Source: an uncultured bacterium
GTDB taxonomy: Bacteria; CSSED10-310; CAZUFC01
NCBI GenBank assembly: GCA_964619725.1
Contig: CAZUFC010000125.1
Span: 1 to 23,439 of the forward strand
Direction: 5' to 3'
DNA length: 23,439 nucleotides
Shown: piece by piece, positions 165 through 23,384 of the stretch
How positions within the stretch are numbered: position 1 is the stretch's first letter
Layout: every line of letters begins with the position of its first letter
Translations under genes and position numbers: made by a program
The notes under the pieces: model-generated
Seen by the model: only the letters and a program-made list of their open reading frames with translations
What the model was told of the DNA's origin: nothing
Databases searched by the model: none

Positions 165-3038
165 TCAATAATAATCGAAACCGACGGAATCGATTTCCCC
201 GTAGACTTCCGCCGAGGCTGGAAGAACAAAACCTGACCAGAAGAAGATGTTTTCTCCAGTACCGGCGTTTTCGGGCCAAACGAAGTTCAATATATTTTCT
301 TTGGGTCGGGCGCCGCAATTAAGGATTATCGGCCTGCAGGAGATTTCCGTGGACCAGTCAGGCCAGAACCAGTAGGAGCCGTAAACGTCGAGGATAATGT
401 AATGGTCGACCGAAGCGGGTTCGCCGGCATTCATGCAGGTGCAGGCGAGCAGGAAGGGATCGCCGCCGGCATAAGCTTCTCGGTTTAGTTCAAGAAGAGG
501 AACCGTGCGATCGACGACTGGAGTATAAGTGGTTATGACGGTAGGAGTCGGAGAATCGTTCGGAGTGAAAACGGGGGTGTTTGTCGGCGCCTGGGAAGGG
601 GCTGACGTCGGTGCGGCAGTAGGCGCTTCAGTGAATACGGGAGATGCCGTATTAGCCGGCGTGCAGGTGAGGACGACCGTAGGGTTTCCGGTTGGTTCAG
701 CAGTCGGAGAAGGCGTTGGTTCAGGCGTTGCGGTCACCGGGGCTTCAAACGGTTTGGAAGCTTCATAGATGTTCCAGTATCCGTCATTCAGAGCAGCGTA
801 GCCGACATGGAGGAGATCATCGTTTCCGTATCTTGCGGACGGCGCCGAATAGCATGTTACGGCGGAAGTAACGTTCTCCGCCGGCGAAAACTGTGTTCCG
901 TTCCAGCATGCATGCTTCAAAATATATCCCAGTTGATTTTTTTCACGCCAGACCAGCTCGACATTTCCAGTCGGGTTATTAAATGCGCATACGAATGATG
1001 AACGATCTGAGCATGGCGTTTCATAACAGGCAAATTCTGTTCCCTCTCTTTTGTAACCCATGATTTTAACGGCGTCTTCGACGCGCTGACGAACGAATAT
1101 CCAGAGCGACCCTTCAGCATCGAAGACTGGAGTCGGCAGGTAAAGCCTTTCATCAGAGGGTATTTCGATTATGTCGCCCCAAACGCCTTGAAAAATTCTG
1201 AAGCAGGCATGAACGCCCAGGTCGTCAAACCGGTTCCAGGCGACGGCTACGGTCTGGCCGTCATCATCGAGAGCCAAGCGAGGATAGAAGCAGTTTATTC
1301 CATCAGAAGATAAGGTTGCGGCTGCATCCCAGGACTGGCCGTTACGACGCCTGGATTCGATAGAGAAGCAGGCGTTTTTTTCTATCTGCCAGACGGCCAT
1401 CATATCTCCTGATGCCAAAATCGCCAGGCTGGGATGCATGGCGTAATCTTCATATGAAGTAAGGCTGCCGTGACCGCTTATGCTGTCGTTAGTGTAAGTC
1501 GCCCACTCTATGCTCTGGTTGTGGTCGTGCCGTGATGTGCTCCATAGAATCAACGCGGAATCGTCGCCCGTGGGTTGTATCGCCGGGTACCAGTCCCAGT
1601 AGTAATGGTAATAGACATTGACAGGCGAGCCGAAGATGCAGCCCTGGCTGCGAATGTAATAAGTGGAGGCTCGACAGGCTTCGGAAGTGTCGAAAACCAT
1701 CCACACGTCCGCTCCCCATGTGCGAAGACTGACATGGCCGTTGCAGTAGAGGTTACTCAGCAGACATTGTTCGCTGAAATCCGTCTCCGGCATCGGCTCG
1801 TTCCTGCTTCCTCTTTTTCCGGGTTCCATGACATGCAGCGAGGGGTCGCCCAGCATCACCATGCCGGAATGCCATTCGTAATTCCAACTTTGCCCCCACC
1901 AATGGCGCATTCCTTCCCCTACAACCTCGCCTTCGCCGATTTCCTGATAAGCCGATTGAAGGTCCATCTCATACATCAGCTTTGTACTGCCGAACGCGAA
2001 AAGCGCCTTGCTCTCTCCAAAAATATACCAGTTGGCCATATTGTCCATTTCTATCCACCGGGCGTTGCTGCAGCCGTTCGTCGTGATGAAGTAGGTTTCA
2101 ACCGGTTCAGCCGCTATCTCCATATTGAAGACTGTGCCCTCGCCGTGATCGTTGCTGTTGTTGTAAAGAAAAGTGTTGCCCCAGGGCGAGGAATGACCGA
2201 GGACATGGACCCAGGAATAACCCTGGTGGAGTTTTTGCTTATAATTGTAAGCATTGGTTTCCTGAGTCGAATTGATGTTATCCGTTACGGGAAATATTTC
2301 TTCGAGATGCGCTGTGGGTCCCCAGCCGTCGTCAATGAAGCTGAGTCCCTTGTACGGCAGTTCTATCGTTCCGGTCCTGTAGGCATGGTTTCTGTCGAAA
2401 TACTCCTGAAGCAGAAAGATGGGATCGTCCCAGGTCAGGTTTTCCGTATAAAGTCGACCGACCCATATTTCCGGCGCTGCAGAGTTCATGTCGTCATAAA
2501 CCCCGTCGCCGTTGCTGTCGGTCCACGTCCCGTTCATGTCGCTCAGGAACAGGTCTATCGGATAACAGACATCATAACCCCACATGTAATCCGTCCACGC
2601 GAAAGGTATATCGCCTACCAGCAAGGCTCCGACCACACCGTTGGAATACCCGGACTGCAAAAGAGCCCGTAACGCCTCAACCGTCCCGGACTCCCAGAGA
2701 TACAGTTCACTGGCAAGCCCTTCATTCAGTAGATCGCCCTGATATCTTGTCAGGCGGTCGTTGAGGTTATCATATATCGTACTGTTCACTACTACATAAA
2801 CCATGGGATCGCGATGACCGGAACGACTCGGATACGGCGTTTCCAGCCGGCGGAAAACGGTTTCGCCGGTTACAGGATGACGCTTCAGATACTCGGCGCG
2901 GGAAGTCAACGCCCGGTTAAACGGGTCGGCAGGAGATATCAAACGCCGGGATGATCCGGGCGCAGAATCTTCCGCTCTTGATGCGGATATGCCGCCGATC
3001 AGCAGGATTACTGCCAGACTTGCATATATTGATTTCAT
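165..3038 (-). CDS. Secreted C25 (gingipain-like) cysteine peptidase with a probable beta-propeller region, Pro/Thr linker and conserved C-terminal domain
   Basis: Signal peptide (MKSIYASLAVILLIGGISASRA). C25-type motifs LLVGDIP, PEIWVGRL, HVLGHSS (catalytic His), TNGCSN (catalytic Cys) and LGDPSL. Repeated beta-rich segments follow, then a TPEPTPSPT linker and a ~110-aa C-terminal domain homologous to that of 19486-20646. Confidence 0.8.
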   Translation of the reverse strand: MKSIYASLAVILLIGGISASRAEDSAPGSSRRLISPADPFNRALTSRAEYLKRHPVTGETVFRRLETPYPSRSGHRDPMVYVVVNSTIYDNLNDRLTRYQGDLLNEGLASELYLWESGTVEALRALLQSGYSNGVVGALLVGDIPFAWTDYMWGYDVCYPIDLFLSDMNGTWTDSNGDGVYDDMNSAAPEIWVGRLYTENLTWDDPIFLLQEYFDRNHAYRTGTIELPYKGLSFIDDGWGPTAHLEEIFPVTDNINSTQETNAYNYKQKLHQGYSWVHVLGHSSPWGNTFLYNNSNDHGEGTVFNMEIAAEPVETYFITTNGCSNARWIEMDNMANWYIFGESKALFAFGSTKLMYEMDLQSAYQEIGEGEVVGEGMRHWWGQSWNYEWHSGMVMLGDPSLHVMEPGKRGSRNEPMPETDFSEQCLLSNLYCNGHVSLRTWGADVWMVFDTSEACRASTYYIRSQGCIFGSPVNVYYHYYWDWYPAIQPTGDDSALILWSTSRHDHNQSIEWATYTNDSISGHGSLTSYEDYAMHPSLAILASGDMMAVWQIEKNACFSIESRRRNGQSWDAAATLSSDGINCFYPRLALDDDGQTVAVAWNRFDDLGVHACFRIFQGVWGDIIEIPSDERLYLPTPVFDAEGSLWIFVRQRVEDAVKIMGYKREGTEFACYETPCSDRSSFVCAFNNPTGNVELVWREKNQLGYILKHACWNGTQFSPAENVTSAVTCYSAPSARYGNDDLLHVGYAALNDGYWNIYEASKPFEAPVTATPEPTPSPTAEPTGNPTVVLTCTPANTASPVFTEAPTAAPTSAPSQAPTNTPVFTPNDSPTPTVITTYTPVVDRTVPLLELNREAYAGGDPFLLACTCMNAGEPASVDHYIILDVYGSYWFWPDWSTEISCRPIILNCGARPKENILNFVWPENAGTGENIFFWSGFVLPASAEVYGEIDSVGFDYY

Positions 3039-6620: not shown

Positions 6621-7862
6621 ATGAACAGACACACCAAGCTTATCAGAAGAATTTTCCAGGTAGCGCTTTTGTCGGCTGTACTGATTGCCGGCGCTCGCTA
6701 CGCTCTGGGAATGAGCCGAACGAGTATTGAAACTTATTGCCCTTTCGGAGGGTTGGAAACCGCATTATCTCTGTTCACCCAAAAACAGTTCGCCTGTGCT
6801 GCCGGCGAAAGAAATTTCGCTTTATTCGTTGCATTGCTTATGCTTACTTTTTTAGCCCGAAAATCATTCTGCAGTTGGCTCTGTCCCGTTGGAACAGTAT
6901 CTGAGTTTTTAACGCGTGCTGCACGCAGAGTATTCCGTAAAAAGCGCAGGGATAAATCAGGCCATAGGCTGTACGCATTTGAACCGAGTCGCCGTCTTGA
7001 TTATTACTTGAGATTCCTGAGAATTCCCGTACTGATTCTGATCCTTTATTTCACTTATCGAACAGGAGAATTAATTTTCAGGGGATATGATCCTTACTAT
7101 ATTCTGTTCAGTTTTCACGGTCATGACGTCAGGTTGTGGAGTTATGGCGTCATTGCCCTGGTTCTCGCCGCCGTATTCGTTTTTCCCATGAGCTGGTGCC
7201 GGTATTTATGTCCTTTAGGCGTCAGCCTGGCGCCCTTCTCGGCATTCGGCAGGTTTCGCATCCGGCGGGACAGCGATTCCTGCAACAATTGCCGGGCCTG
7301 CGACAAGGCGTGCCTTCATTCGCTTAGGGTTTCTGATGTCAATGAAGTTAAATCCGCCGAATGCACCCTATGCCTGGAATGCGTTTCAGCCTGTAAGTCC
7401 TCTCGTTCTCTTTCTTTGAAATTCAGGTTTTTCCGTCTCTTCAGCATTTCACATAAATCAATTCCCGTCATGATCATCGCTTTAACGGCCCTGGGGCTTT
7501 TGGCCGCCCGAAGTTTTTCCGTCCCCAGCGTTGATCTCGAATTTCACCGGAATGCTGCTGACGTCGATGATAAAAGTATCCGCTCAACAGAGTTTATCGT
7601 TGATGGCGTCAAATGCGTCGATACGGCTCTTTCTGCAGCTTCAACGCTTGAAACCCTCGAAGGCGTTCTTGCTTTTAAGGCGTTCGCTTCTTACAATAGA
7701 ATAATCGTCGACCATGATCCGGCGACGACTGATACGGAAGAAATAATCGAGGCCATTGAAGGTCCGGTTTATGATGAGGAAACTAATGAGTTTTATTTTA
7801 ACCTCTTCACCATTCTGAAAGTAGACGGAGAGGATGTTGATTCATTAAACAGGAGGAATTAG
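6621..7862 (+). CDS. Membrane 4Fe-4S binding protein (NapH/MauN/YccM-like) with a C-terminal HMA-like domain
   Basis: ETYCPFGGLE, FCSWLCPVG, WCRYLCPLG, two ferredoxin motifs (CNNCRACDKAC, CTLCLECVSAC) and several TM helices. The C-terminal FIVDGVKCVDT...LEGV...DPATTDTEEIIEAIE resembles an HMA fold. Confidence 0.85.
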   Translation: MNRHTKLIRRIFQVALLSAVLIAGARYALGMSRTSIETYCPFGGLETALSLFTQKQFACAAGERNFALFVALLMLTFLARKSFCSWLCPVGTVSEFLTRAARRVFRKKRRDKSGHRLYAFEPSRRLDYYLRFLRIPVLILILYFTYRTGELIFRGYDPYYILFSFHGHDVRLWSYGVIALVLAAVFVFPMSWCRYLCPLGVSLAPFSAFGRFRIRRDSDSCNNCRACDKACLHSLRVSDVNEVKSAECTLCLECVSACKSSRSLSLKFRFFRLFSISHKSIPVMIIALTALGLLAARSFSVPSVDLEFHRNAADVDDKSIRSTEFIVDGVKCVDTALSAASTLETLEGVLAFKAFASYNRIIVDHDPATTDTEEIIEAIEGPVYDEETNEFYFNLFTILKVDGEDVDSLNRRN

Positions 7863-8934: not shown

Positions 8935-10869
8935 ATGGCGACGAAGTACCGGGGAATGAACGGGCGATATATTGAAGTGGATTTGAGTTCCGGCGGGAGC
9001 CGGACGATTGAGTTGACGGACAGCGACGTGGAGTTGTATCTGGGGTGTAAGGTATTAGCGAGCAAGTTTCTTCATGAGATGATTCCTCCAGGAACGAATG
9101 CTTATGATCCGGGGAACGTTGTTATCGTGAACACAGGACCGCTGACGGGGAGCGGCGCGCCTACGAGCGCCCGGTTCAATATATCGAGTAAAAGTCCTTT
9201 AACCGGGGGAGCCGGGGCTTCCAACTGCGGAGGATCGTTCGGCATATATTTGAAGAAGACGGGACATGACGGACTGATAATCAAGGGAAAGGCAGAACGT
9301 CCCGTATGGCTGGAGATTAGTGAAAAGGGCGCTGAGATCAATGATGCCTCAGAAATGTGGGGATTGAATACGGAGGAAACGGAGGAAGCGCTGGGCGGTG
9401 GCCGCAAGACTGGTAAACTGGTCATAGGTCCGGCTGGGGAGAATCTGGTGCGATATGCTGCCGTGATGTCTGGCGAGAGGGCTGCGGGAAGGACGGGCCT
9501 GGGAGCGGTATTCGGCTCAAAAAACTTGAAAGCGGTGACGGCTAAAGGAACGAAGCGTCTGCGCCCGGCTGATCCTGAAGCGTTTCGAAAGGCGGTTTCA
9601 AGCTGGACGCGTCTGCTGCGCAAACACAATATTACCGGCTCGCTGCTTCCAAAATACGGCACTTCAAACATCATGCGAACTGTCAGCGACGGCAATGCCC
9701 TGCCCGTTAAAAATTTCCAGCAAGGCGCTTTTGAAGGAGCGGAAAACATCAGCGGACAGACGCTGGCGGAAAAATACCTTGTAAAAAATTACGGTTGCAT
9801 GTCATGTCCGATACATTGCGGCCGTTATATCGAATACAAAGGAGAAAGATTTAAAGGCCCGGAATTCGAGACGCTCGGCATGCTTGGAGCTAACCTGGGT
9901 AATTCCAACCTGGAATCCATCATTGAATGGAACCGTTTGCTGGATCGGCTGGGTATGGACACGATCTCGACCGGCGCTGCCCTGGGATTCGTAATGGAAC
10001 TCACCGAACAGGGATTGCTGGAATCGACCCTGGAATTCGGCAAAATCGATAATGTCGCTCAGGCTATTGAAAACATCGCATATAGAAAAGGATTGGGTCA
10101 TGATATGGCGGAAGGCGTTAAAAAAATGGCAAAAAAATACGGGGGCGAAGAATTCGCCATGCACGCAAAAGGACTGGAATTCGCCGCTTATGAGCCGCGA
10201 GGCGCTGTCGGACACGGGTTGGGGTATGCGACGGCCAATAGGGGCGGATGTCATCTTGACGGAGGATATCTGGTTTTTTACGAAGTGACGAACGACATGA
10301 CGATGGACCCGTTATCCCCGAAATCAAAACCCGCATTCTGCGTCTTCAATCAGAATGCTTTCGAAGCCGTCAGCGCGGCCGGCACATGTATCTTTACTAC
10401 TTATGCCGTCATGCCGAACCTCATATCATCTTTGAGTAAAATACCGGGAATTCCTCTTATTTTCAAAGAAGTTACGAAATATGCCGGGCTTCTGTTAGAC
10501 CGCCAGGGCGCGTTTCCGGAATGGGCTCTTCCCCTTCACCTGCCTGGTTTAAATCATACCGAAGCGCTCAGCGCCTATACAGGAATGAAAATGAATCTGG
10601 GTCGCTTTTTGAAGATAGGCGAAAGAGGTTTCAATCTGGAGAGAATGTTCAACATAAAACACGGCCTTTTACCCAGGGAAGACCGATTGCCGGAAAGAAC
10701 GACTCACGTCCTTCAAAGACTTAATGAACCGAGATCAAAAGTGCCTCTGGCAAAAATGCTCAAGAGTTACTACAAAATACGGGGATGGGATGAACGGGGA
10801 ATGCCGGCGAAAAGAAAGCTGCAATCGTTGAATATCGATTGGACCATGGAGGAAGTAGACTTTGGCTAG
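8935..10869 (+). CDS. aor: Aldehyde:ferredoxin oxidoreductase family protein (tungstopterin/4Fe-4S)
   Basis: TGPLTG, KSPLTG, SNCGGSFG, IGPAGENLVRYA, AAGRTGLGAVFGSKNLKA, GCMSCPIHCGR, GPEFET, DRLGMDTIS, RGGCH and YYKIRGWD. GGAGG RBS. Confidence 0.95.
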   Translation: MATKYRGMNGRYIEVDLSSGGSRTIELTDSDVELYLGCKVLASKFLHEMIPPGTNAYDPGNVVIVNTGPLTGSGAPTSARFNISSKSPLTGGAGASNCGGSFGIYLKKTGHDGLIIKGKAERPVWLEISEKGAEINDASEMWGLNTEETEEALGGGRKTGKLVIGPAGENLVRYAAVMSGERAAGRTGLGAVFGSKNLKAVTAKGTKRLRPADPEAFRKAVSSWTRLLRKHNITGSLLPKYGTSNIMRTVSDGNALPVKNFQQGAFEGAENISGQTLAEKYLVKNYGCMSCPIHCGRYIEYKGERFKGPEFETLGMLGANLGNSNLESIIEWNRLLDRLGMDTISTGAALGFVMELTEQGLLESTLEFGKIDNVAQAIENIAYRKGLGHDMAEGVKKMAKKYGGEEFAMHAKGLEFAAYEPRGAVGHGLGYATANRGGCHLDGGYLVFYEVTNDMTMDPLSPKSKPAFCVFNQNAFEAVSAAGTCIFTTYAVMPNLISSLSKIPGIPLIFKEVTKYAGLLLDRQGAFPEWALPLHLPGLNHTEALSAYTGMKMNLGRFLKIGERGFNLERMFNIKHGLLPREDRLPERTTHVLQRLNEPRSKVPLAKMLKSYYKIRGWDERGMPAKRKLQSLNIDWTMEEVDFG

Positions 10870-14967: not shown

Positions 14968-15264
14968 ATGAATAAAGCCGGTCAATTGAGCATTACGCAA
15001 CTGATCGGAGAAGCTGCGAGAACCCGTAAAGATGCAGACGGGCTTCTTTGCCCGAGTTGGTTTGTTAAAATTTTAGAATTTAACGCCATTCCTGAATGGG
15101 ATGAAAGCCTGTTAATACTGAGAAATGCTGCTGTATGTATATCCGACGGCCTGGATGATTTCCAGCGAACTTTTTCCTATTCCCTGATTCAATCGAGATT
15201 TGAGTTTGCAGACAGCCGTTTGACAGAATGCGGACGATTTGTTACTAATATTATCGGCGATTGA
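14968..15264 (+). CDS. Possible small hypothetical protein (doubtful)
   Basis: 98-aa ORF with GGAG close to the ATG. No recognisable motif, and it overlaps the likely promoter (TTGACA at 15220) of the riboswitch operon. Confidence 0.2.
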   Translation: MNKAGQLSITQLIGEAARTRKDADGLLCPSWFVKILEFNAIPEWDESLLILRNAAVCISDGLDDFQRTFSYSLIQSRFEFADSRLTECGRFVTNIIGD

Positions 15265-15270
15265 CCCTGG

Positions 15271-15430
15271 AAGCGAACGATGACGCTTTTTCAGCGAAGG
15301 GGAAGCCGGTGCGAATCCGGCGCTGACCCGCAACTGTAATCGGGGACGAAACCCGCAAAAAACCACTGGAATTTCCGGGAAGGTGCGGGGAGTAGGGTGA
15401 ACCGTAAGTCAGGAGACCCGCTCGTTTGCA
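15271..15430 (+). promoter_or_regulatory. Cobalamin (AdoCbl) riboswitch
   Basis: Conserved elements AGGGGAAGCCGGTGCGAATCCGGCGCTGACCCGCAACTGTAA, CCACTGG...CCGGGAAGG and the B12 box AGTCAGGAGACCCG. Closing P1 is GCGAACGA / TCGTTTGC. Lies upstream of a TonB-dependent receptor. Confidence 0.95.
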
Positions 15431-15612
15431 TGCTTTGAAGCCTTCGAGGGGCTGGGGCGACGAAGCCGGCCTGCCTGTAGATTGAGTCGTTTGTTGCGAT
15501 TCTGGAACAATAAGCCCCAAAAATTGAATAGGACGGATATTAAAGCGGAAGATTTCATTTGTCTTCGATAATTTGGAAGTTTCCGACGGAATTCAAAGTT
15601 GGGGAATATTGA

Positions 15613-17679
15613 ATGAGAGGAAAATCGATTGGCGATTGCGACGCCTTTGACGTCAGAGGGAAAAAACGAGAAAACAAGAGTGTAAGGCTAACGTCGAAGG
15701 CTGCAATTTCGATTTTACTGGCGTTTTGCCTGTCTTCATTAGTTCAGGTTTCAGGCGAATCAGAAGCCGGCGACGATAAAGACGCCGAGTCGCCTTCATC
15801 GGTTTATCGTTACACCGAGACCATCGTGGTGGAAAGCGAAGCCCCGGTTTTTCATGAGATAGGAGTAACCGAGCTTCCGGCGTTCGTTGCGCGGATAGAC
15901 TTGCGGGATGAATCAACGCCTCGTTTCATCACCCTGCCTGAATTGCTGCAGAAGACCGTGGGAATTAACATAAAGGATTTCGGGGGATCAGGACAGCTTT
16001 CGACTGTTTCCATAAGAGGTTCTGATGCAGACCAGGCAGTCGTTCTGTTGGACGGCATACGGTTGAATTCCTCCAAAGGCGGCGGAGTGAATCTGTCCTC
16101 AATACCGCTGCATATGCTGGAAAGAGTGGAAATATTACGGGGCGGCGACTCTGCCGTTTTCGGGAACGGCGCTATGGGCGGAGTCGTGAATCTGGTGACT
16201 CGTCGATCAGGCGGTAAATTCCGTTTCGATATTGAAAGTTCATACGGTTCTTTCGATACCTGGGGGCTTGGTTTGCATACTGCCGGAAAGCTGAAGGATA
16301 TTCGTTATTCCCTGCTTTATCACTATGATTCTTCACAAGGCGATTTCACCTTCACCAACGATAACGGCACAGAATATAACGATCAGGACGATTTTGAAGA
16401 TATTCGCCGTAATAACGGATTTCATTCACGCGGACTTCTTTTAAAGTTATCCCGGGATATCTCTCCCGGAAGAACAGTGGAGGGGCTCTTCGAAGGATAT
16501 ATAGCCGACCGAAACATCCCGGGTATGACGACTTTTCCTTCTGATCATGCCGTTCAGGAGGAATCAAGAGTAAGCGGCCGGTTGCGTTCGATGCTTCAAA
16601 ATTTTCCGGCGGAAGGTTTCTCCGGCGATTTTCAGGCCTATTACCGTTCAGACAGGTTTAGATTTGACGATCCCTACGGTGAACAAACCGGCGTTCCCGT
16701 CAAAACGCGACAGAAAACGCATCTTGCAGGCTTCCAATACGGAATTAAGCGGATATTTCGTTCAGTCAACCTGGGAGGACATTTTATCTACGAAAACGAG
16801 AGACTGGACGATAAGACTTACCAGGCTGATGACCGACGAATCGCCGCTTTTCGTTTGAAATCCGATTTCCCGCTTTTTTCAGACAAATTGTTCGTGACGA
16901 CCCTGTTGCGATATGACGATATTTCTTCTGTCGGAAGCGCCTGGAGCCCCAAACTGGGAATACGTTTTAAAACAGGCAAGAATCAATGGATTAAAGCGAA
17001 CATCGGACAATCCTTCAGAGCCCCCGGATTCAATGAACTGTACATGAATGCAGGATTCATGACAGGCAATCCCGATCTTAAACCTGAACGAGGACTAAGC
17101 GCAGACTTCGGCATTGAATACAATTCCGAAAAGATACGGTTGACATCGGCCTGGTTTTATAACCGAACTACTGATTTGATTCGTTATGTAATAGTTTCCG
17201 GATTCCGATACAAACCCTTGAATATAGGAAAAGCACGCTCGGAGGGAATTGAACTCGAATGTTCAGTGAAACCCTGGAATATCGTTTCTTTCAGCACAGG
17301 ATATACTCTGCTGAAATCCATGAGCCTGATGGATGATCCCAATACATACGGAAAACAGGTCCCCGGAAAACCCAGGCATAATTTTTTCACACGTATCGAC
17401 AATGATAGGGGACCATTTCGCTCTTTTATCGAATACCGTTACTTGAGCGGAAATTTCATTACATTGGACAATACGAAAGAACTGGACGAACGGAATATCG
17501 TAAATATCGGTGCGGGTATGCGAATGCCCTGGTTTGGCGAAAGCTCTCCATTACGGGGACTGGAGCTTGGATTCGAAGTAAAAAACATGGGTGATGACGA
17601 AGTGGCGGACGTCAGGGGATTCCCTCTTCCCGGTCGGGCTTATTATATTACCGTGAAATATCAATATTCAGCGGAGTGA
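15613..17679 (+). CDS. btuB: TonB-dependent vitamin B12 receptor
   Basis: TonB box ETIVVES. Plug motifs SIRGS...VVLLDGIRLN, ERVEILRGGDSAVFGNGAMGGVVNLVT. Barrel motifs SFRAPGFNELY, GNPDLKPE, NIGKARSEGIE and GFPLPGRAYY. Controlled by the cobalamin riboswitch. Confidence 0.9.
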   Translation: MRGKSIGDCDAFDVRGKKRENKSVRLTSKAAISILLAFCLSSLVQVSGESEAGDDKDAESPSSVYRYTETIVVESEAPVFHEIGVTELPAFVARIDLRDESTPRFITLPELLQKTVGINIKDFGGSGQLSTVSIRGSDADQAVVLLDGIRLNSSKGGGVNLSSIPLHMLERVEILRGGDSAVFGNGAMGGVVNLVTRRSGGKFRFDIESSYGSFDTWGLGLHTAGKLKDIRYSLLYHYDSSQGDFTFTNDNGTEYNDQDDFEDIRRNNGFHSRGLLLKLSRDISPGRTVEGLFEGYIADRNIPGMTTFPSDHAVQEESRVSGRLRSMLQNFPAEGFSGDFQAYYRSDRFRFDDPYGEQTGVPVKTRQKTHLAGFQYGIKRIFRSVNLGGHFIYENERLDDKTYQADDRRIAAFRLKSDFPLFSDKLFVTTLLRYDDISSVGSAWSPKLGIRFKTGKNQWIKANIGQSFRAPGFNELYMNAGFMTGNPDLKPERGLSADFGIEYNSEKIRLTSAWFYNRTTDLIRYVIVSGFRYKPLNIGKARSEGIELECSVKPWNIVSFSTGYTLLKSMSLMDDPNTYGKQVPGKPRHNFFTRIDNDRGPFRSFIEYRYLSGNFITLDNTKELDERNIVNIGAGMRMPWFGESSPLRGLELGFEVKNMGDDEVADVRGFPLPGRAYYITVKYQYSAE

Positions 17680-19472
17680 TGGATATGTGCGTTTGGAATA
17701 AATACTGGTTGTGTTTGACTATTTGCTGCTTATGTTTCATTTCAGTTCTTTTACCAATGGCGGCGGATGCAGATGTGAAATTTTTCGATATGCGGTCATT
17801 TTATATTTACGACGTGACGAATTTCATCCGGGAACGGACGGGAATATACGACGTGCAGAATTTGACCGGGTGCAACATGTCGCCGGGAGAAGGAGACGAG
17901 ATGCTTCTGGCGGCAGGTGAAGGTCGTATCGTTGGATTGGATGCGCTTACTTTTTCGAGAATATTTGAATTGAATGAAAGCGATGTACGCGCGCTTTTCG
18001 GGCTGCCTGAAGGAACGGGTTACTTTTCAGTGTTCACCAAGGATTCGGAGACTGTCGACGAGTTGCTTTATTATGACCGGCAGACTGAAGTTTACTGGTC
18101 TATCCATCCCGAAACCGGGCGTATTGGACCATATACGGGAGTCACGTTGCCGGGTGATTTTTGTACCGGTTTCAGCGAAGCTTCTGAAGATGATATCGCG
18201 TTTTTGTATCGCATGGGCGAATCGGGTGATTATGCCTGGAGATTTCGTTCTTTGACGGATTCAAGCGAGCTGGACCTGGACATGCAGCCATTATTTGGAA
18301 TGAACCCGGCATTTGTGACGGAGGTCGAATTATCAGCAGCAGGGCAAACATACCGCTTCCTGGCGGCTTCAAACAGTGCGCAACAAGGCACGCAAACTCC
18401 GACTCCCACACCCTCTCCGACTACTACGCCTGATTCGACTTCATATCCCTTTGCAGCGGTCGTCGCCAATGGATTATCAGAAACGCTCAGCGTCCTGGAT
18501 TGTTCGGTTCCCCGTAATATGGAAACGCATATCGCAGATACAGGGAATGCTCCCAATCAACTTTTGGTAAATAACGGAGTACTTTATTGCATTAATTCAC
18601 GTTCCAACTCAATTACGCTATATGAGCTGCCGTCATTAAGGATGTTAACCGACCGGGAGATTTCGGTGGAAGACGGACGCAACCCTTTTAAAGCAGCATT
18701 CCTGAACGATTCAATTTGTTACGTGACTAATTTTGCCGCAGATTCCGTCTCAGTAGTCAATGTCGACGGCGGTTTCGTACAAAATGAAATCGCTCTGCCC
18801 CACGGCGATGAATTGCCGCGCGATCCCGGCGTTTCCCAAACCTGGGCAAAACCCTGTGGAATTTGCATAGTCAACGACAGGGCTTATGTCGCCTGTACGA
18901 ATCTGAATAATGAATTTATTGCTGGCGGTCCCGGCATAGTATGCGTGATAGACGTTGCGTCTCAATCCGTAATCGATATAATCGAAACGAACGGCAGAGA
19001 TACGGTTGACGTCAGTTGGAATGAAATATATCCGGACAGTCTCTGGATCACCAGCGCGGGCGATTACGTTCCCGGAACGGGATTCATCGGCAACGGAAAC
19101 GTCGACGTTTATTCTTTGTCCGGCAATGAGATCATTCATACCGTGGAATTGAATGAAGCGCCTTTTGAGATGATCATCAGCCCGGCAGGTCGCGCCTATG
19201 TCGGTAATGGAAGGCAGTCCCGGCTTTTACGGTTCAACGTCGAAGGATACGAAATCCTGCCGCCGATCGATATTCCCGGCGGCGGCATTGATGTCGGTTT
19301 CATTTCCGGATTGTCCATAGCCCCGGATGGCCTCCTGTGGATCACGGAATTCAGCTCGGATTCCATTTATATTCTGGATACCAATCAAAACGATGCCTTG
19401 ATCGAAGGCCCCTATATACCCGGACTCGGGCCCGATGCCGTCGTAACTTTCAACTGCTCGGCCGGACAATAA
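17676..19472 (+). CDS. Secreted two-domain protein: unknown N-terminal domain, Pro/Thr linker, YncE/BtuG-like beta-propeller
   Basis: Start overlaps the btuB stop (GTGA/TGATG). Signal peptide ending ADA and a QTPTPTPSPTTTP linker. Propeller repeats VANGLSETLSVLD, TGNAPNQL, YVTNFAADSVSVVN, PCGICIVNDRAYVA and GPDAVV. Confidence 0.8.
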   Translation: MMDMCVWNKYWLCLTICCLCFISVLLPMAADADVKFFDMRSFYIYDVTNFIRERTGIYDVQNLTGCNMSPGEGDEMLLAAGEGRIVGLDALTFSRIFELNESDVRALFGLPEGTGYFSVFTKDSETVDELLYYDRQTEVYWSIHPETGRIGPYTGVTLPGDFCTGFSEASEDDIAFLYRMGESGDYAWRFRSLTDSSELDLDMQPLFGMNPAFVTEVELSAAGQTYRFLAASNSAQQGTQTPTPTPSPTTTPDSTSYPFAAVVANGLSETLSVLDCSVPRNMETHIADTGNAPNQLLVNNGVLYCINSRSNSITLYELPSLRMLTDREISVEDGRNPFKAAFLNDSICYVTNFAADSVSVVNVDGGFVQNEIALPHGDELPRDPGVSQTWAKPCGICIVNDRAYVACTNLNNEFIAGGPGIVCVIDVASQSVIDIIETNGRDTVDVSWNEIYPDSLWITSAGDYVPGTGFIGNGNVDVYSLSGNEIIHTVELNEAPFEMIISPAGRAYVGNGRQSRLLRFNVEGYEILPPIDIPGGGIDVGFISGLSIAPDGLLWITEFSSDSIYILDTNQNDALIEGPYIPGLGPDAVVTFNCSAGQ

Positions 19473-19485
19473 GGAGTTCATTTAA

Positions 19486-20646
19486 ATGAAAGGTTTACCC
19501 TCAAATGGATGCTTCAAAATAAAACATTTTCTTGCTCTTATTTTCTCTCTTTCGCTTTCAACAACGATTTATGCCGACCCTTTCATCGATTCGGTCGCTG
19601 ACGTGCAATACGGATGGGGCGCAGGTTTCGGTCAGAGCGAATTACCGGACATCATTTTAGGTCCTCCCCGGGGATCGGGAGAAACGGGAGGCTCATTGGA
19701 TGTCCTGTCGCTCGGCGACGGCGGCGTTATTACGCTGGAATTCACCGATAATCTTGCATTGAACGGACCGGGACCGGACCTCATCATTTTTGAGAATGCC
19801 TTTTTCATCGCCGGCAACCCGGAAAACGTCTATGTAGAAGCGGCCTTCGTCGAAGTCAGCCAGGACGGCATAAATTTCGTGAGATTCCCCAACGACTACG
19901 ACCCGGAAGGAGAACCTCCCAATCATGCTGATAACTGGACCGGCTTCTCCGGCGTCCAACCCGTGTTTTCCAATCCGGAAAACGACATAGACCCTACTGA
20001 TCCGGATGTCGCCGGAGGAGACCTGTTCGATCTGGATGCGTTGCAGGAAAAAGGAGTTTTTTTCGAAGGGATTAAATATGTAAGAATAATAGATACGGAT
20101 GAACCGCCCAATGCCGCATACGACGACGACGGCGATGAAATATACGATCCCGGAACGCCCACCTACGGAAAATCCGGGTACGACCTGGATGCAATTGCCG
20201 CTGTCCATTCCCTGGAAATTGAAGACCCCATACCCACGCCGACCCCGACAATATTCCCGGAACCTACGTTCACACCCCAGATGCCTGCGGCAACCCCGAC
20301 GCCGATACCCTTCAACGTAGAATTGAATTTGAATAAAAATCGTTTCGAATCGAACGACCCATTCCTCCTTTCCATAAATATTCAAAATTCCGATCAGCAA
20401 CAAAGAATACGATGTTTCATTGTCCTGGAACTGTCAGGTGAATTCTGGTTCTGGCCTAATTGGGAAACGGAAACGGACTGGAGGGAAATCGAAATGGAAC
20501 CGGAGGAAACATGGAGCCGTATTATCCTCGAATTCCAATGGCCGGAAACGGATTTTCAAAACTACACCGCCCTGATATGGGCCGGTTGCCTGACCACGGA
20601 CAACATCCTGCTGGACGATCCCGCCTTTTGCGCCTTCGAATTCTGA
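19486..20646 (+). CDS. Secreted BtuH-like ('cell surface protein') putative cobamide-binding domain, with Pro/Thr linker and conserved C-terminal domain
   Basis: AAGGAG RBS and signal peptide. SLGDGGVITLEF...NGPGPDLIIFENAF...VEVSQDG...GGDLFDL...YVRIID...GYDLDAI resembles B12-operon surface domains. The C-terminal ~110 aa is homologous to the C-terminus of 165-3038. Confidence 0.7.
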   Translation: MKGLPSNGCFKIKHFLALIFSLSLSTTIYADPFIDSVADVQYGWGAGFGQSELPDIILGPPRGSGETGGSLDVLSLGDGGVITLEFTDNLALNGPGPDLIIFENAFFIAGNPENVYVEAAFVEVSQDGINFVRFPNDYDPEGEPPNHADNWTGFSGVQPVFSNPENDIDPTDPDVAGGDLFDLDALQEKGVFFEGIKYVRIIDTDEPPNAAYDDDGDEIYDPGTPTYGKSGYDLDAIAAVHSLEIEDPIPTPTPTIFPEPTFTPQMPAATPTPIPFNVELNLNKNRFESNDPFLLSINIQNSDQQQRIRCFIVLELSGEFWFWPNWETETDWREIEMEPEETWSRIILEFQWPETDFQNYTALIWAGCLTTDNILLDDPAFCAFEF

Positions 20647-20863: not shown

Positions 20864-21564
20864 ATGCAAACCCCGAAAACGGCGGCGCCGGGTCAGTACC
20901 TGAAAATCCAGAATTACGTGGTCAACTCTGCACCCGGTGAAACCATCTACAAGCCGCCCCCGGCACACGATGTGCCCATCATGATGGCCGAACTGGCGAA
21001 TTTCCTGAGCAGCGAAGGGGAGACACACCCGGTTTTAGTGAGTGGGATTGCCCAGTTCCAACTGGTCCATATTCATCCCTTTTTGGACGGCAACGGCCGC
21101 ACGTCCCTCCTGCTTTCCACTCTCTATCTTTACCGGGCGGGGTACGACTTCAAGCGGCTGTTCACAATCAGCGAATACTGCGACCGGGATCGACCCGCTT
21201 TTTACCGGGCTATTCAGGGTGTAAGAGAAGCCGACATGGACATGACCGGCCGGCTGGAATTCTTTGTCGATGGCCTGAGCGCCCAGCTTGCCGATGTCAG
21301 GGAGCGCGGCGAGAAGGCCATCCGAAAGGATATGATCATCAAGGAGCATAACCTGTCAGACCGCCAGACCCTGGCCCTTTCCCATATCCTTGTCCATGGT
21401 CGGGTGAGTATCCAGGACTTTGAGCGCCTCAGTTTTCGTGTCAGCCTCCGCACATTGCAAAGAGACCTCAGGGTCATGTGGACAAAAGCCTGATTATCGA
21501 GAGAGCCTCAAGCCCCGCCGATCCGACAAAAATTTACATCCTGGCAGGAAAATTATCCGGTTGA
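20864..21564 (+). pseudogene. Decayed Fic family protein with a C-terminal wHTH
   Basis: Fic motif [12 protein letters not shown] lacks the final Arg. The N-terminal part is missing. There is an apparent 1-nt deletion near 21479 (ATG TG GAC), and the shifted frame continues [27 protein letters not shown] to 21564. Confidence 0.8.
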
Positions 21565-21874: not shown

Positions 21875-22141
21875 ATGCCAACTATTTCAATGTTTTTTGG
21901 GATCATAATTCGGATGTATTTTGCTCCAGGCGAACATCCTCCTCCACATTTTCACGCGTATTATAACGAGTTTAAGGCGACAGTGAACATTCACACATGT
22001 GAAATCATCGAAGGAAATCTCCCTGGAAGACAAACCAAGTTCGTCCTGGCATGGGCTGAGCTTCATCAGGAGGAATTGTTGGCCAATTGGCAACTGGTGA
22101 TGAATGGGGAGGAGCCCTTTAAAATACAACCGCTTCGGTAA
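21875..22141 (+). CDS. DUF4160 domain protein (putative toxin of a type II TA-like pair)
   Basis: MPTISMFFGIIIRMYF...EHPPPHFHAYY...LAWAELHQEELLANW is the characteristic DUF4160 sequence. AAGGAG RBS and an extended -10 (TGATAGAAT at 21802-21810). Confidence 0.9.
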   Translation: MPTISMFFGIIIRMYFAPGEHPPPHFHAYYNEFKATVNIHTCEIIEGNLPGRQTKFVLAWAELHQEELLANWQLVMNGEEPFKIQPLR

Positions 22142-22152
22142 GGAGAAATTTA

Positions 22153-22431
22153 ATGTATCCATCGATAAAACAAGTAGTTCCTCGCGATGATTTCACTCTC
22201 TCCATTGTTTTTGAAAACGGCGAGAGCGGTATACTTGATATGAGACCAATACTTGATTTCGGGGTATTCCATCGAATTAAAAAATTGAGTAAATTCAAGC
22301 AAGTGCGGATTGCCTTTGATACAATTTCGTGGGACTGCGGTGTTGATCTCGATCCTGAATATGTTTACGCAAAGTGTAAGGGAAAATCGATTGCCGAACC
22401 ACAGGATGAACCGGACGGCGAAAGCTCTTAA
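22153..22431 (+). CDS. DUF2442 domain protein (partner of DUF4160)
   Basis: IKQVVPRDDFTLSIVFENGESGILDM...GVF...FKQVRI...TISW...DLDPEYVY. AAGGAG RBS. The 3' end runs into the attC-like site. Confidence 0.9.
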   Translation: MYPSIKQVVPRDDFTLSIVFENGESGILDMRPILDFGVFHRIKKLSKFKQVRIAFDTISWDCGVDLDPEYVYAKCKGKSIAEPQDEPDGESS

Positions 22432-22583: not shown

Positions 22584-23078
22584 TTATCCCGGAATTTCTC
22601 CGACTGTTTGAAGTACTTTTTCGTATAAGTCGCTGCCGATTCTGAATCCGGCGTTTTTGATTAAAGCATCTATTGCCGGTTTTAGTTCGTCGATGATCAT
22701 CTGCCGTTTCGCCTCTGCAAGTATACCTAATACGCCCACGACATTGAGTCCCAGTCGTAAGGCGACATTTCGCGCAAGTTTTTCATCAATCAGAATTAAT
22801 TCTGCCTTAATTTCTATCGCCAGAGCAATTGCTTCGGCTTCCCCTTCGTCTAATTCAATCCTGAGAGCTTTGAAAAAATTGATATCTCTGACTGGATGAG
22901 ATATGATCCATTCTTCCGATTTAACCTCACTGCTTCCAGGTTGACCGTCTCCTGAAACTGCAATCTCCTGGTACACCGCTTCAGGTATATAAATATTTTC
23001 ATAGAGCTTCTTCAGAATATTTAACTTTCCAACAGCAGCAAGCCCTATTATCGGCGAAGCATCGCCTACGACAATCAT
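22584..23078 (-). CDS. DUF3368 / PIN-domain protein (toxin-like)
   Basis: MIVVGDASPIIGL...IPEAVYQE...LDEGEAEAIALA...LIDEKLAR...GVLGIL...GFRI. The start overlaps the upstream stop (ATGA). Confidence 0.9.
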   Translation of the reverse strand: MIVVGDASPIIGLAAVGKLNILKKLYENIYIPEAVYQEIAVSGDGQPGSSEVKSEEWIISHPVRDINFFKALRIELDEGEAEAIALAIEIKAELILIDEKLARNVALRLGLNVVGVLGILAEAKRQMIIDELKPAIDALIKNAGFRIGSDLYEKVLQTVGEIPG

Positions 23079-23320
23079 ATTCTTTCCAGTTTACGAAGCG
23101 TTTTTAAGTCTTCTTCAAACTCCTTAATGCCATAATGAACTGGTATTCCACGGCTGGACAGGAGATGCTGAAATTGAAATCGGTTCATTCCGGATAACCT
23201 GGCGGCCTGAGCCAAAGTTACTTTCTCTTTCTCGAAAAGCATTACGGCGATTTCCAGCAGAAGTTCATCATGCGACATGCGAGCTGCCCGTAAAATTTCA
23301 TCTGATATTACGACGCTCAT
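23075..23320 (-). CDS. UPF0175 family protein (antitoxin-like HTH)
   Basis: MSVVISDEILRAARMS.DELLLEIAVMLFEKEKVTLAQAARLSGMNRFQFQHLLSSRGIPVHY...EEDLKTL. The ATG at 23320 is preferred over the extended start, which lies inside the palindrome. Confidence 0.9.
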   Translation of the reverse strand: MSVVISDEILRAARMSHDELLLEIAVMLFEKEKVTLAQAARLSGMNRFQFQHLLSSRGIPVHYGIKEFEEDLKTLRKLERI

Positions 23321-23330
23321 TTTTCGACTC

Positions 23331-23384
23331 TCTTTCTGCTCATGGCCTGGTGAAGAATTTTTCACCAGGCCATGAGCAGAAAGA
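23331..23384. repeat. 54-bp near-perfect palindrome
   Basis: 24-bp perfect arms TCTTTCTGCTCATGGCCTGGTGAA / TTCACCAGGCCATGAGCAGAAAGA around GAATTT, which is itself palindromic except for one mismatched pair. Confidence 0.9.

Follow-up and report, generated by a model that had tools for sequence, protein, structure and literature searches.

C-terminal sorting domains define whole secretomes; once such a domain is identified, sequence alone is enough to list the surface and secreted proteins of a lineage. The described systems closest to the domain analyzed here are the type A C-terminal domain (CTD) of type IX secretion systems (T9SS), catalogued as TIGR04183/PF18962 or Por_Secre_tail, the exosortase signals PEP-CTERM (TIGR02595) and IPTL-CTERM (TIGR04174), and the type I dockerin (PF00404). 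The window, which is the whole stretch of DNA under study (23,439 nucleotides), is one entire contig (C125, or CAZUFC010000125.1) of the assembly GCA_964619725.1 (G000; 9,173,508 bases in 344 contigs) and comes from CSSED10-310, a rare, uncultured phylum, Gram-negative by prediction and apparently sister to Acidobacteriota (PMC8248873). Two proteins encoded in the window, P0003 (957 residues, open reading frame (ORF) 165-3038 on the minus strand) and P0004 (386 residues, ORF 19486-20646 on the plus strand), end in a homologous domain of ~110 residues, hereafter the tail. This domain is undescribed and is in no curated family library. On balance, judging from sequence comparisons, the tail probably serves as a modular C-terminal tag, specific to the lineage, that directs proteins to the cell surface or retains them there.

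A first, sequence-only reading of the window had ascribed a common layout to both proteins, consisting of a signal-peptide-like N-terminus, a Pro/Thr linker and a homologous C-terminal domain, and this layout is confirmed by the following segments:

168..503, minus strand: tail domain of P0003, residues 846-957 (translation, BLASTP, and hidden Markov model (HMM) E 4.6e-32); stop codon at 165-167
504..752, minus strand: P0003 linker rich in Pro/Thr/Ser/Ala, residues 763-845 (48% Pro+Thr, 66% Pro+Thr+Ser+Ala)
753..3038, minus strand: P0003 signal peptide (about 2973-3038) and cargo, as read from the sequence
19486..20223, plus strand: P0004 signal peptide (about 19486-19575) and LIC_13355-like cargo (NF033170, 70 bits)
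20224..20310, plus strand: P0004 Pro/Thr linker, residues 247-275 (62% Pro+Thr)
20311..20643, plus strand: tail domain of P0004, residues 276-386 (translation, BLASTP, HMM E 2.3e-26); stop codon at 20644-20646

According to the HMM, P0003 and P0004 are the only two tail carriers in the window. BLASTP aligns their last ~112 residues without gaps (29 identities out of 88, E 4e-20), matching an alignment previously made by hand (29 identities over 89 residues, ungapped), and both chains end in the F-[DE]-aromatic pattern noticed at that stage, P0003 finishing with GFDYY and P0004 with AFEF. P0003 returns no match in Pfam, NCBIfam or PDB sequences. It is homologous from end to end to P0053 (E 7e-103), a protein with a weak Peptidase_C25 match (PF01364; E 4.1e-7, 30 bits for a cut-off of 23), and 22 of the 30 ESM clusters nearest to P0003 are C25-type. 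Its former designation as a C25 peptidase is left without a direct family match and is borne out in part, through P0053. The P0003 cargo may comprise a divergent C25-like (clan CD) region and, behind it, a region rich in repeats, with GHS (residue 281) and GCSN (residue 322) as candidate His/Cys catalytic dyad. Relatives of this cargo (29-44% identity) are found in metagenome-assembled genomes (MAGs) titled Candidatus Fermentibacteria, Aegiribacteria and Sabulitectum. Regarding P0004, it resembles the LIC_13355 lipoprotein family (NF033170) at a sub-threshold level (70 vs 120 bits), and it has no PDB sequence match among B12-binding proteins. The name BtuH-like once given to it therefore has no sequence support from the PDB, and the part of that proposal which stands is the link with vitamin B12, through a cobalamin-riboswitch operon described below. 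The P0004 cargo has 1056 relatives at E<=1e-5, the short Myxococcus forms being named 'cell surface protein' by NCBI, and its closest tail-bearing relatives (58-68% identity) include four NCBI records of candidate division CSSED10-310, to which NCBI gives the rank of phylum.

The tail is a large family in the genome to which the window belongs. All stop-to-stop frames of at least 60 residues in G000 were translated (53,820 ORFs), and an HMM made from the two window tails alone reports 214 domain matches, which become 227 in 226 ORFs after iteration and are stable over the final three rounds; tens to hundreds of copies per genome had been predicted, and the likeness of the two tails goes well past chance. 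An independent search of the same genome yields at least 150 tail matches among 264 candidates, all 150 scored candidates having matched. The place of the domain within the chain is nearly constant, again as anticipated, since 217 of the 227 copies lie within 25 residues of the stop, at a median distance of 3 residues. Among these terminal copies, 186 have an aromatic residue within the last 4 positions, 172 have an aromatic-small-aromatic triplet followed by only 0-3 residues before the stop, and the commonest final residue is Glu (62 copies). Such a tightly constrained free C-terminus suggests that a partner reads the chain end itself. The claim that the tail proteins are devoid of transmembrane helix and lipobox also holds: none of the 226 carriers possesses a hydrophobic 17-mer in its last 45 residues, which departs from the PEP-CTERM/IPTL-CTERM architecture, and only 7 of the 159 carriers passing a strict signal-peptide test are lipobox-like.

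This strict heuristic is positive for 159 out of 209 carriers (at least 250 residues long and not cut by a contig end), as compared with 435 out of 1500 tail-free ORFs of 300 residues or more taken at random, and a looser one gives 184 out of 209 vs 682 out of 1500. The 40 residues upstream of the domain contain 44.5% Pro+Thr+Ser vs 16.9% in the background, and 143 out of 211 reach 35%. The cargo parts of at least 150 residues (203 in total) fall into 97 single-linkage groups, the largest with 67 members and 75 of them singletons, so that the forecast of signal-peptide proteins with diverse cargo is borne out. Within G000, 57 of the 226 carriers have another carrier within 1 kb. Pfam analysis was performed on 115 of the 149 listed family members from outside the window, namely those of at least 250 residues (34 shorter ones were dropped), with a threshold of E<=1e-5 for the first 61 and E<=1e-8 for the remaining 54. 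It reports Peptidase_C25 in 12 proteins (11 with Propeptide_C25), Peptidase_M14 in 11, Peptidase_S8 in 5, the Porphyromonas-type arginine deiminase PAD_porph in 3, the C13, Trypsin_2, M6, M28 and C1 families in one each, BNR/sortilin-type domains in 7, and no family in 55. Further cargo families are endonuclease I, Kelch, PGA_cap, purple acid phosphatase, beta-helix/NosD, lamin-tail, CE2/GDSL and PBP, among others. The tail is at times fused to FGE-sulfatase-type domains, on either side of it (G000:C179:522-2942, G000:C153:3829-6570, L162).

The taxonomic range was examined in a set of 14 CSSED10-310 genomes (G000 and 13 others, 60-96% complete) and in a wider sample. The tail is present in 10 of the 13 other phylum genomes (families f4, f6 and f7), with 57 to at least 114 matches each, and no match is found in G001, G002 and G004 (families f2, f3 and f5), referred to below as the tail-less genomes. 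In a sample of 401 genomes, 15 return matches at E<=1e-5, these being G000, the same 10, and 4 out of 387 genomes of other phyla, which is the restricted range that had been foreseen. The out-of-phylum carriers are three genomes of family f47 (G055, G223 and G373), each of which has 20-21 matches at E<=1e-3, and G059 (f51), with 4. Their copies are divergent (E 1e-8 to 1e-12), keep the core pattern and mostly end 2-13 residues before the stop (loci L148-L171). No tail match is returned by five named genomes, of Firestonebacteria, Omnitrophica, Lentisphaeraceae, Kiritimatiellia and Planctomycetota. Five Fermentibacteria-type MAGs (G408-G412) are likewise without tail at E<=1e-10, a strict threshold below which weak matches are possible; a first look at them gives 9-14 tail candidates, the same as in other negatives.

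The strongest functional evidence comes from related cargo, on which the tail occupies the position of four established sorting or anchoring modules, in three independent cases. The first case is the cargo of P0004 (residues 30-270). Among the 119 relatives listed, the 30 closest all carry the tail, 0-6 residues from the end. Others finish differently: a T9SS type A domain terminates P0189 (TIGR04183, 31.2 bits for a cut-off of 23) and, below cut-off, P0187 (18.9 bits); PEP-CTERM terminates P0185 (17.6 vs 16 bits); and P0191, P0193, P0197 and P0199 possess a Pro/Thr linker followed by Dockerin_1. In the second case, relatives of P0003 in the Fermentibacteria-type MAGs have T9SS type A-like ends (L043 with 31.2 bits, and L041 with 17 bits, below cut-off); L046 matches only the PorZ C-terminal region, and L045 returns nothing at E<=0.01. 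A further P0003 relative, at the MAG locus L051, bears a tail of the window type instead of a T9SS domain. Since the T9SS-type ends are found in MAGs that encode SprA, the choice of tail seems to follow the machinery present. The third case is provided by the tail-less G001, which has 15 PF01364 matches above 100 bits. The four G001 C25 peptidases inspected (L106, L108, L110 and L112) carry at their end a short motif, a helix of hydrophobic residues and a cluster of basic ones, L110 reaching 19.7 bits with IPTL-CTERM for a cut-off of 20.5. Among the 14 phylum genomes, a full-length exosortase is found only in the tail-less G001 and G002. An exosortase as complement of the tail was considered and could be kept in part only, since the tail-less G004 is devoid of a full-length one. 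A short exosortase-like protein (~180-230 residues), matching only the C-terminal half of PF09721, occurs once per genome in 14 out of 14, for example:

G000:C134:13003-13455: short exosortase-like protein

Module replacement thus comes as new evidence in addition to copy number, end position and range of cargo, and together they largely support the modular tag first proposed from the two window proteins. Indeed, the domain matches no known Pfam/TIGRFAM family, is far from confined to two proteins, and is not commonly internal or cytoplasmic.

The position of the tail outside known families, asserted from the start, stands. The two window tails have no Pfam or NCBIfam match at E<=1, save for one noise match (E 0.3), and 30 tails, all from G000 and together forming the profile alignment A2, return individually at E<=1 four unrelated Pfam families, each in 1 out of 30 (best E 0.01). 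The tail does not match dockerin PF00404, and its fold model is all-beta. The 30 ESM Atlas clusters nearest to the tail have no Pfam family in common and are all unnamed. No mention of the tail was found in the literature searched, which covers main texts and leaves subscription journals mostly outside; it is not mentioned in PMC10116835, PMC4846661 and bioRxiv 10.1101/146886, the phylum paper PMC8248873 is silent on secretion and C-terminal domains, and the same search found no literature on type IX secretion in Fermentibacteria/Fermentibacter. In public metagenome clusters (50% identity), the A2 profile matches 2,412 of 1.84 billion representatives at E<=1e-3, of which 1,680 reach E 1e-10 and 29 reach 1e-30. 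Among the 150 cluster matches listed, 148 end within about 5 residues of the protein end, the exceptions being P0039 and P0122.

AlphaFold2, applied to A2 with the P0003 copy, yields a model with eight beta-strands in which all 110 residues exceed a pLDDT of 90 (pLDDT 97.2, pTM 0.87). The tail is accordingly predicted with confidence as an independent Ig-like domain of ~110 residues folded into an eight-strand beta-sandwich. Foldseek reports nothing in the PDB at E<=1e-3. The top VIA-align hit among 48,161 chains is the N-terminal Ig-like domain of a GH66 dextranase (Z 10.3, rmsd 2.6 over 96 residues, 12% identity), followed by RbmA (8.8), macroglobulin, transglutaminase and GH2 Ig-like domains (7-8.4), CARDB (7.7) and the polysaccharide-binding Wzt domain (within Z 7-10), Z values of 7-8 being common background for such searches. 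The T9SS CTD is found neither among the Foldseek rows listed nor among the best 50 VIA-align rows, and an unlisted family could still match. With glycoside hydrolase Ig-like domains, the biofilm matrix protein RbmA, CARDB and the Wzt domain as neighbours at Z 7-10, the tail could be an ordinary ligand- or substrate-binding Ig-like module, of the carbohydrate-binding module (CBM) or adhesin kind, that plays no role in sorting or in attachment to its own cell. Pro/Thr linkers are typical of binding modules, and internal, tandem and N-terminal copies of the tail exist. Such modules are not normally chain-terminal, however, whereas 217 of the 227 tails are terminal with a conserved end; the 226 carriers with about 97 cargo types are far above usual CBM usage; the cargo includes non-degradative proteins such as that of the B12 operon; and what the tail stands in for on related cargo is in every case a sorting or anchoring signal and never a CBM. 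A mere binding module therefore looks quite improbable next to a tag for sorting or retention.

The tail shares its size class, Ig-like sandwich, extreme C-terminal position and signal-peptide cargo with the T9SS CTD, and its cargo set is reminiscent of T9SS secretomes in that it contains gingipain-type C25 peptidases with their propeptide, M14 and the Porphyromonas-type deiminase. It might for these reasons be an extremely divergent T9SS CTD, served by a T9SS that has diverged beyond detection. Yet hhalign analysis of the 30 tails against alignment A3, which comprises 20 genuine type A CTDs out of two Bacteroidota MAGs, reports no profile likeness (0.16% probability, E 0.37, 6 columns). The type A model TIGR04183 has no match in 12 of the 14 phylum genomes, G000 included, as compared with at least 150 and 133 matches in two Bacteroidota control genomes. 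The remaining matches come from MAGs of low completeness: G013 (69% complete, 520 contigs) contains 10 genuine domains on the small contigs C274, C433, C243, C54 and others, and G012 contains 1. G013 has no SprA, and its type A domains may represent bin contamination. SprA itself is found in 0 of the 14 phylum genomes and in 0 of the 4 genomes of f47 and f51. Both Bacteroidota controls (2281 and 2421 bits) and all five Fermentibacteria-type MAGs are above its cut-off, hence the model can see SprA proteins from outside Bacteroidota. No PorV exceeds the 250-bit cut-off in the 14 genomes, with two sub-threshold matches of ~20 bits in G001 and G005 and controls at 463-464 bits; GldM is found in 0 of the 3 phylum genomes tested and in both controls; and the best GldK score, 92 bits for a cut-off of 350, originates from generic FGE-sulfatase domains, the controls giving 543-589 bits. 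The GldK model gives 36 FGE-sulfatase-like matches in G000. The type B CTD model (TIGR04131) has no match over cut-off in the 14 genomes, in a search that had no positive control, and one internal sub-threshold match on a 4489-residue ORF. Because the assemblies are 60-96% complete, these absences hold as 'not found in the genomes searched'.

A hidden T9SS could also be advocated on account of PorU-like C25 proteins in this phylum, where no T9SS was detected; these proteins score about 210-233 bits with a sortase model whose cut-off is 420:

G000:C69:23988-27278 (L103:9989-13279): PorU-like C25 protein, 1096 residues, 230 bits
G003 L104:9340-12342, and G001 L106 and L108: PorU-like C25 proteins elsewhere

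These proteins are without tail themselves and are present in the tail-less G001 too, which counts against that idea. As dedicated sortase of the tail the G000 protein was considered and rejected, as it also has no conserved neighbours and no adjoining PorV-like gene, and PorU-like proteins that score equally well occur in G001. The G000 and G003 proteins finish with a weak 'choice-of-anchor X'-like segment, those of G001 with a transmembrane-type anchor. All in all, a divergent T9SS CTD is very improbable indeed, in keeping with the earlier statement that the tail is not a T9SS CTD.

Only one system for protein export across the outer membrane was detected, the type II secretion system (T2SS); the search for Slam/type XI secretion (PF04575) gives 0 out of 14 and is uninformative, since no control matched either. 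The secretin GspD (TIGR02517) is above cut-off in all 14 phylum genomes, usually as two full-length copies. Six GspD loci annotated with Pfam fall into two types of clusters. The type 1 cluster contains GspK, a GspL-like protein, GspM, a GspD of 750-812 residues and a Big_1/invasin-like protein. Downstream come a beta-helix protein that bears the tail (G000, G005), an M6 peptidase that bears it (G003, G005), or both. The type 2 cluster contains a tail-bearing S8 subtilase (G003, G007), a GspC-like PDZ protein, a GspD of 626-644 residues and GspE; in G000, a flavoprotein takes the place of the subtilase upstream. Genes for the GspC-like PDZ protein span L175:9957-10745 and L176:11278-12069. These six loci had been picked after the proximity was noticed, and all 19 GspD loci of the 11 tail-bearing genomes were taken afterwards. 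A tail ORF lies within 5 kb of GspD in 12 of the 19 loci and within 3 kb in 11, for a background in G000 of 19% (309 out of 1604 non-tail ORFs of at least 500 residues). In 11 loci GspD is adjoined by a Big_1 homologue, and the tail gene comes next in all 9 that can be evaluated, spread over four families; in the remaining 2, the contig begins within the Big_1 gene. Genes for T2SS substrates often neighbour those of the system itself, and at least these tail-bearing proteins may be read as T2SS substrates. The Big_1 gene is an unusual conserved T2SS accessory gene in its own right: it is single-copy, lies directly downstream of the long-form GspD (L172, L174, L177), encodes 374-430 residues with three Big_1/invasin-like Ig repeats (one copy being L172:10085-11206), and is present in all 11 genomes that have the tail, while two tail-less genomes have longer versions. 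The gene was considered as a tail-specific partner and rejected, since divergent copies also adjoin GspD in the tail-less G001 and G004; no beta-helix or M6 homologue is found behind it in the tail-less genomes.

This synteny bears on a further alternative, in which the tail is an export signal that routes folded cargo via the T2SS or a dedicated translocon, surface retention being secondary or absent. For example, a GspC-like PDZ domain or the N-domains of the secretin would read the conserved free C-terminus. PDZ domains bind free C-termini, the free C-terminus of the tail is strongly constrained, a GspC-like PDZ protein is encoded between the tail-bearing S8 subtilase and GspD in G003 and G007, and the tail gene follows GspD-Big_1 in 9 out of 9 evaluable type 1 clusters. 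Moreover, the T9SS CTD, which the tail replaces on two cargo families, is itself an export signal. Against this, GspD is also present in the tail-less G001, G002 and G004, so that the T2SS can do without tail, and T2SS substrates are not known to carry a portable signal. The Pro/Thr stalks, the replacement by dockerin and PEP-CTERM, and the tandem and N-terminal divergent copies fit an anchor better. We therefore hold an export signal to be unlikely, though by no means far-fetched. Its most specific form, a portable T2SS signal on ~60-230 proteins per genome whose aromatic C-terminus would be read by a GspC-like PDZ domain or the secretin, the cargo being perhaps then held at the surface, is decidedly doubtful. 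By analogy, retention tag and export signal are not mutually exclusive, the T9SS CTD doing both jobs.

If we return to the tail as a tag for surface sorting or retention, its carriers would follow a three-step route. A Sec signal peptide, as judged from the signal-peptide-like N-termini, would bring them to the periplasm; they would then cross the outer membrane, most plausibly via one of the two T2SS, considering the presence and synteny of these systems; and the folded Ig-like tail, borne on its Pro/Thr stalk, would keep the cargo at the surface by binding a surface component. The common traits of the modules replaced by the tail point to lipopolysaccharide or capsule, a surface layer, or a scaffold protein as candidates for this component.

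Several observations weigh against this reading. The G000 assembly is 90.9% complete with 6.5% contamination, its ORFs are stop-to-stop frames rather than gene calls, and the strict signal-peptide test is a home-made heuristic that is positive for 29% of background ORFs. In G000, 8 of the 227 tail copies lie more than 25 residues from the stop; 2 of these are short fragments, and several look composite, the tail being followed by an FGE-sulfatase-like or 5'-nucleotidase-like segment. The Ig-like fold is generic, and sharing it assigns no function. Tandem pairs (L165, L170) and copies located right behind the signal peptide (L159, L162), both seen in the divergent out-of-phylum branch, would suit a general Ig-like module of extracellular proteins no less than a tag. 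Among the 8 other GspD loci, of type 2, a tail gene is present in 3 only, and since kin share synteny by descent, the linkage is conserved and amounts neither to independent evidence nor to a statistical test. Lastly, no tail-specific partner or machinery was found in the genomes searched, the T2SS and the Big_1 gene being present in tail-less genomes as well.

The surroundings of the two proteins in the window comprise the following features:

15258..15439, plus strand: cobalamin riboswitch heading the P0004 operon (Rfam RF00174, 111 bits vs a gathering threshold of 31.5, E 2.1e-27)
15613..17679, plus strand: TonB-dependent receptor in a BtuB-like position (Pfam TonB_dep_Rec_b-barrel 9.5e-40, Plug 7.7e-21)
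17676..19472, plus strand: 598-residue ORF between the receptor and P0004, with no Pfam family and no tail
6621-7862: 4Fe-4S protein
8935-10869: tungsten-type aldehyde ferredoxin oxidoreductase (AFOR_C 3.2e-117)
21875-22431: DUF4160/DUF2442 pair of toxin-antitoxin type
22584-23365, minus strand: DUF3368/UPF0175 pair of toxin-antitoxin type

P0004 is the final gene of the riboswitch/TonB-receptor operon (window positions 15258-20646). The presence of a TonB-dependent receptor indicates that the organism has an outer membrane. B12-uptake accessory proteins of the Bacteroides BtuG type act outside the outer membrane, and as P0004 has a signal peptide and no lipobox, its tail would be the only candidate for holding it at the surface. 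The 598-residue protein of the same operon could be a new B12-capture component. The machinery of the tag is not encoded in the window, in agreement with what was noted at first. Downstream, a Fic/DOC gene (20864-21493) precedes the two toxin-antitoxin-like pairs, and the 4Fe-4S protein together with the aldehyde ferredoxin oxidoreductase fits an anaerobic fermenter.

Taken as a surface tag, the tail would mean that a rare uncultured phylum in which no type IX system was found deploys, under a tag of another kind, a T9SS-like arsenal of gingipain-type peptidases, carboxypeptidases, arginine deiminases and subtilases, and that from one lineage to the next related cargo exchanges one of four kinds of tag for another. 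A tail HMM would improve genome annotation at once, even close relatives being now named 'hypothetical protein'. If the link with the T2SS is true, it bears on the long-standing question of how this system recognizes its substrates, and a portable signal would be the first general T2SS targeting signal, a T9SS-like secretome strategy on T2SS hardware.

The tail and the described systems resemble each other in some respects and differ in others. Like the tail, the T9SS type A CTD is a small all-beta Ig-like domain found at the extreme C-terminus of signal-peptide proteins, in tens to hundreds of copies per genome and on varied cargo, and the two sets of cargo overlap (C25 with propeptide, M14, PAD_porph, S8). 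However, the tail is longer (~110 vs ~75 model positions) and is devoid of the PNP/GxY/K motifs of A3, the lack of T9SS signatures having been remarked on at first reading. The exosortase signals are also C-terminal sorting signals on many secreted proteins, but they combine a short motif with a transmembrane helix and a cluster of basic residues, whereas 0 of the 226 tail carriers has a hydrophobic helix. Generic bacterial Ig-like or CARDB-like extracellular domains belong to the same fold class as the tail, with 3-17% identity and no family-model match, and are usually internal or repeated, while the tail is chain-terminal. The type I dockerin, similarly to the tail, is a C-terminal module that comes after a Pro/Thr linker and is borne by many different secreted enzymes within a single organism, and it sits at the tail position on relatives of the P0004 cargo. 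Cellulosomal dockerins occur in copy numbers per genome of the same order as the tail. The dockerin is a calcium-binding helical repeat of ~60 residues, in contrast to the eight-strand beta-sandwich of the tail. By analogy with these systems, the tail, a different domain family, probably does the job of the T9SS CTD, PEP-CTERM and dockerin without a type IX system.

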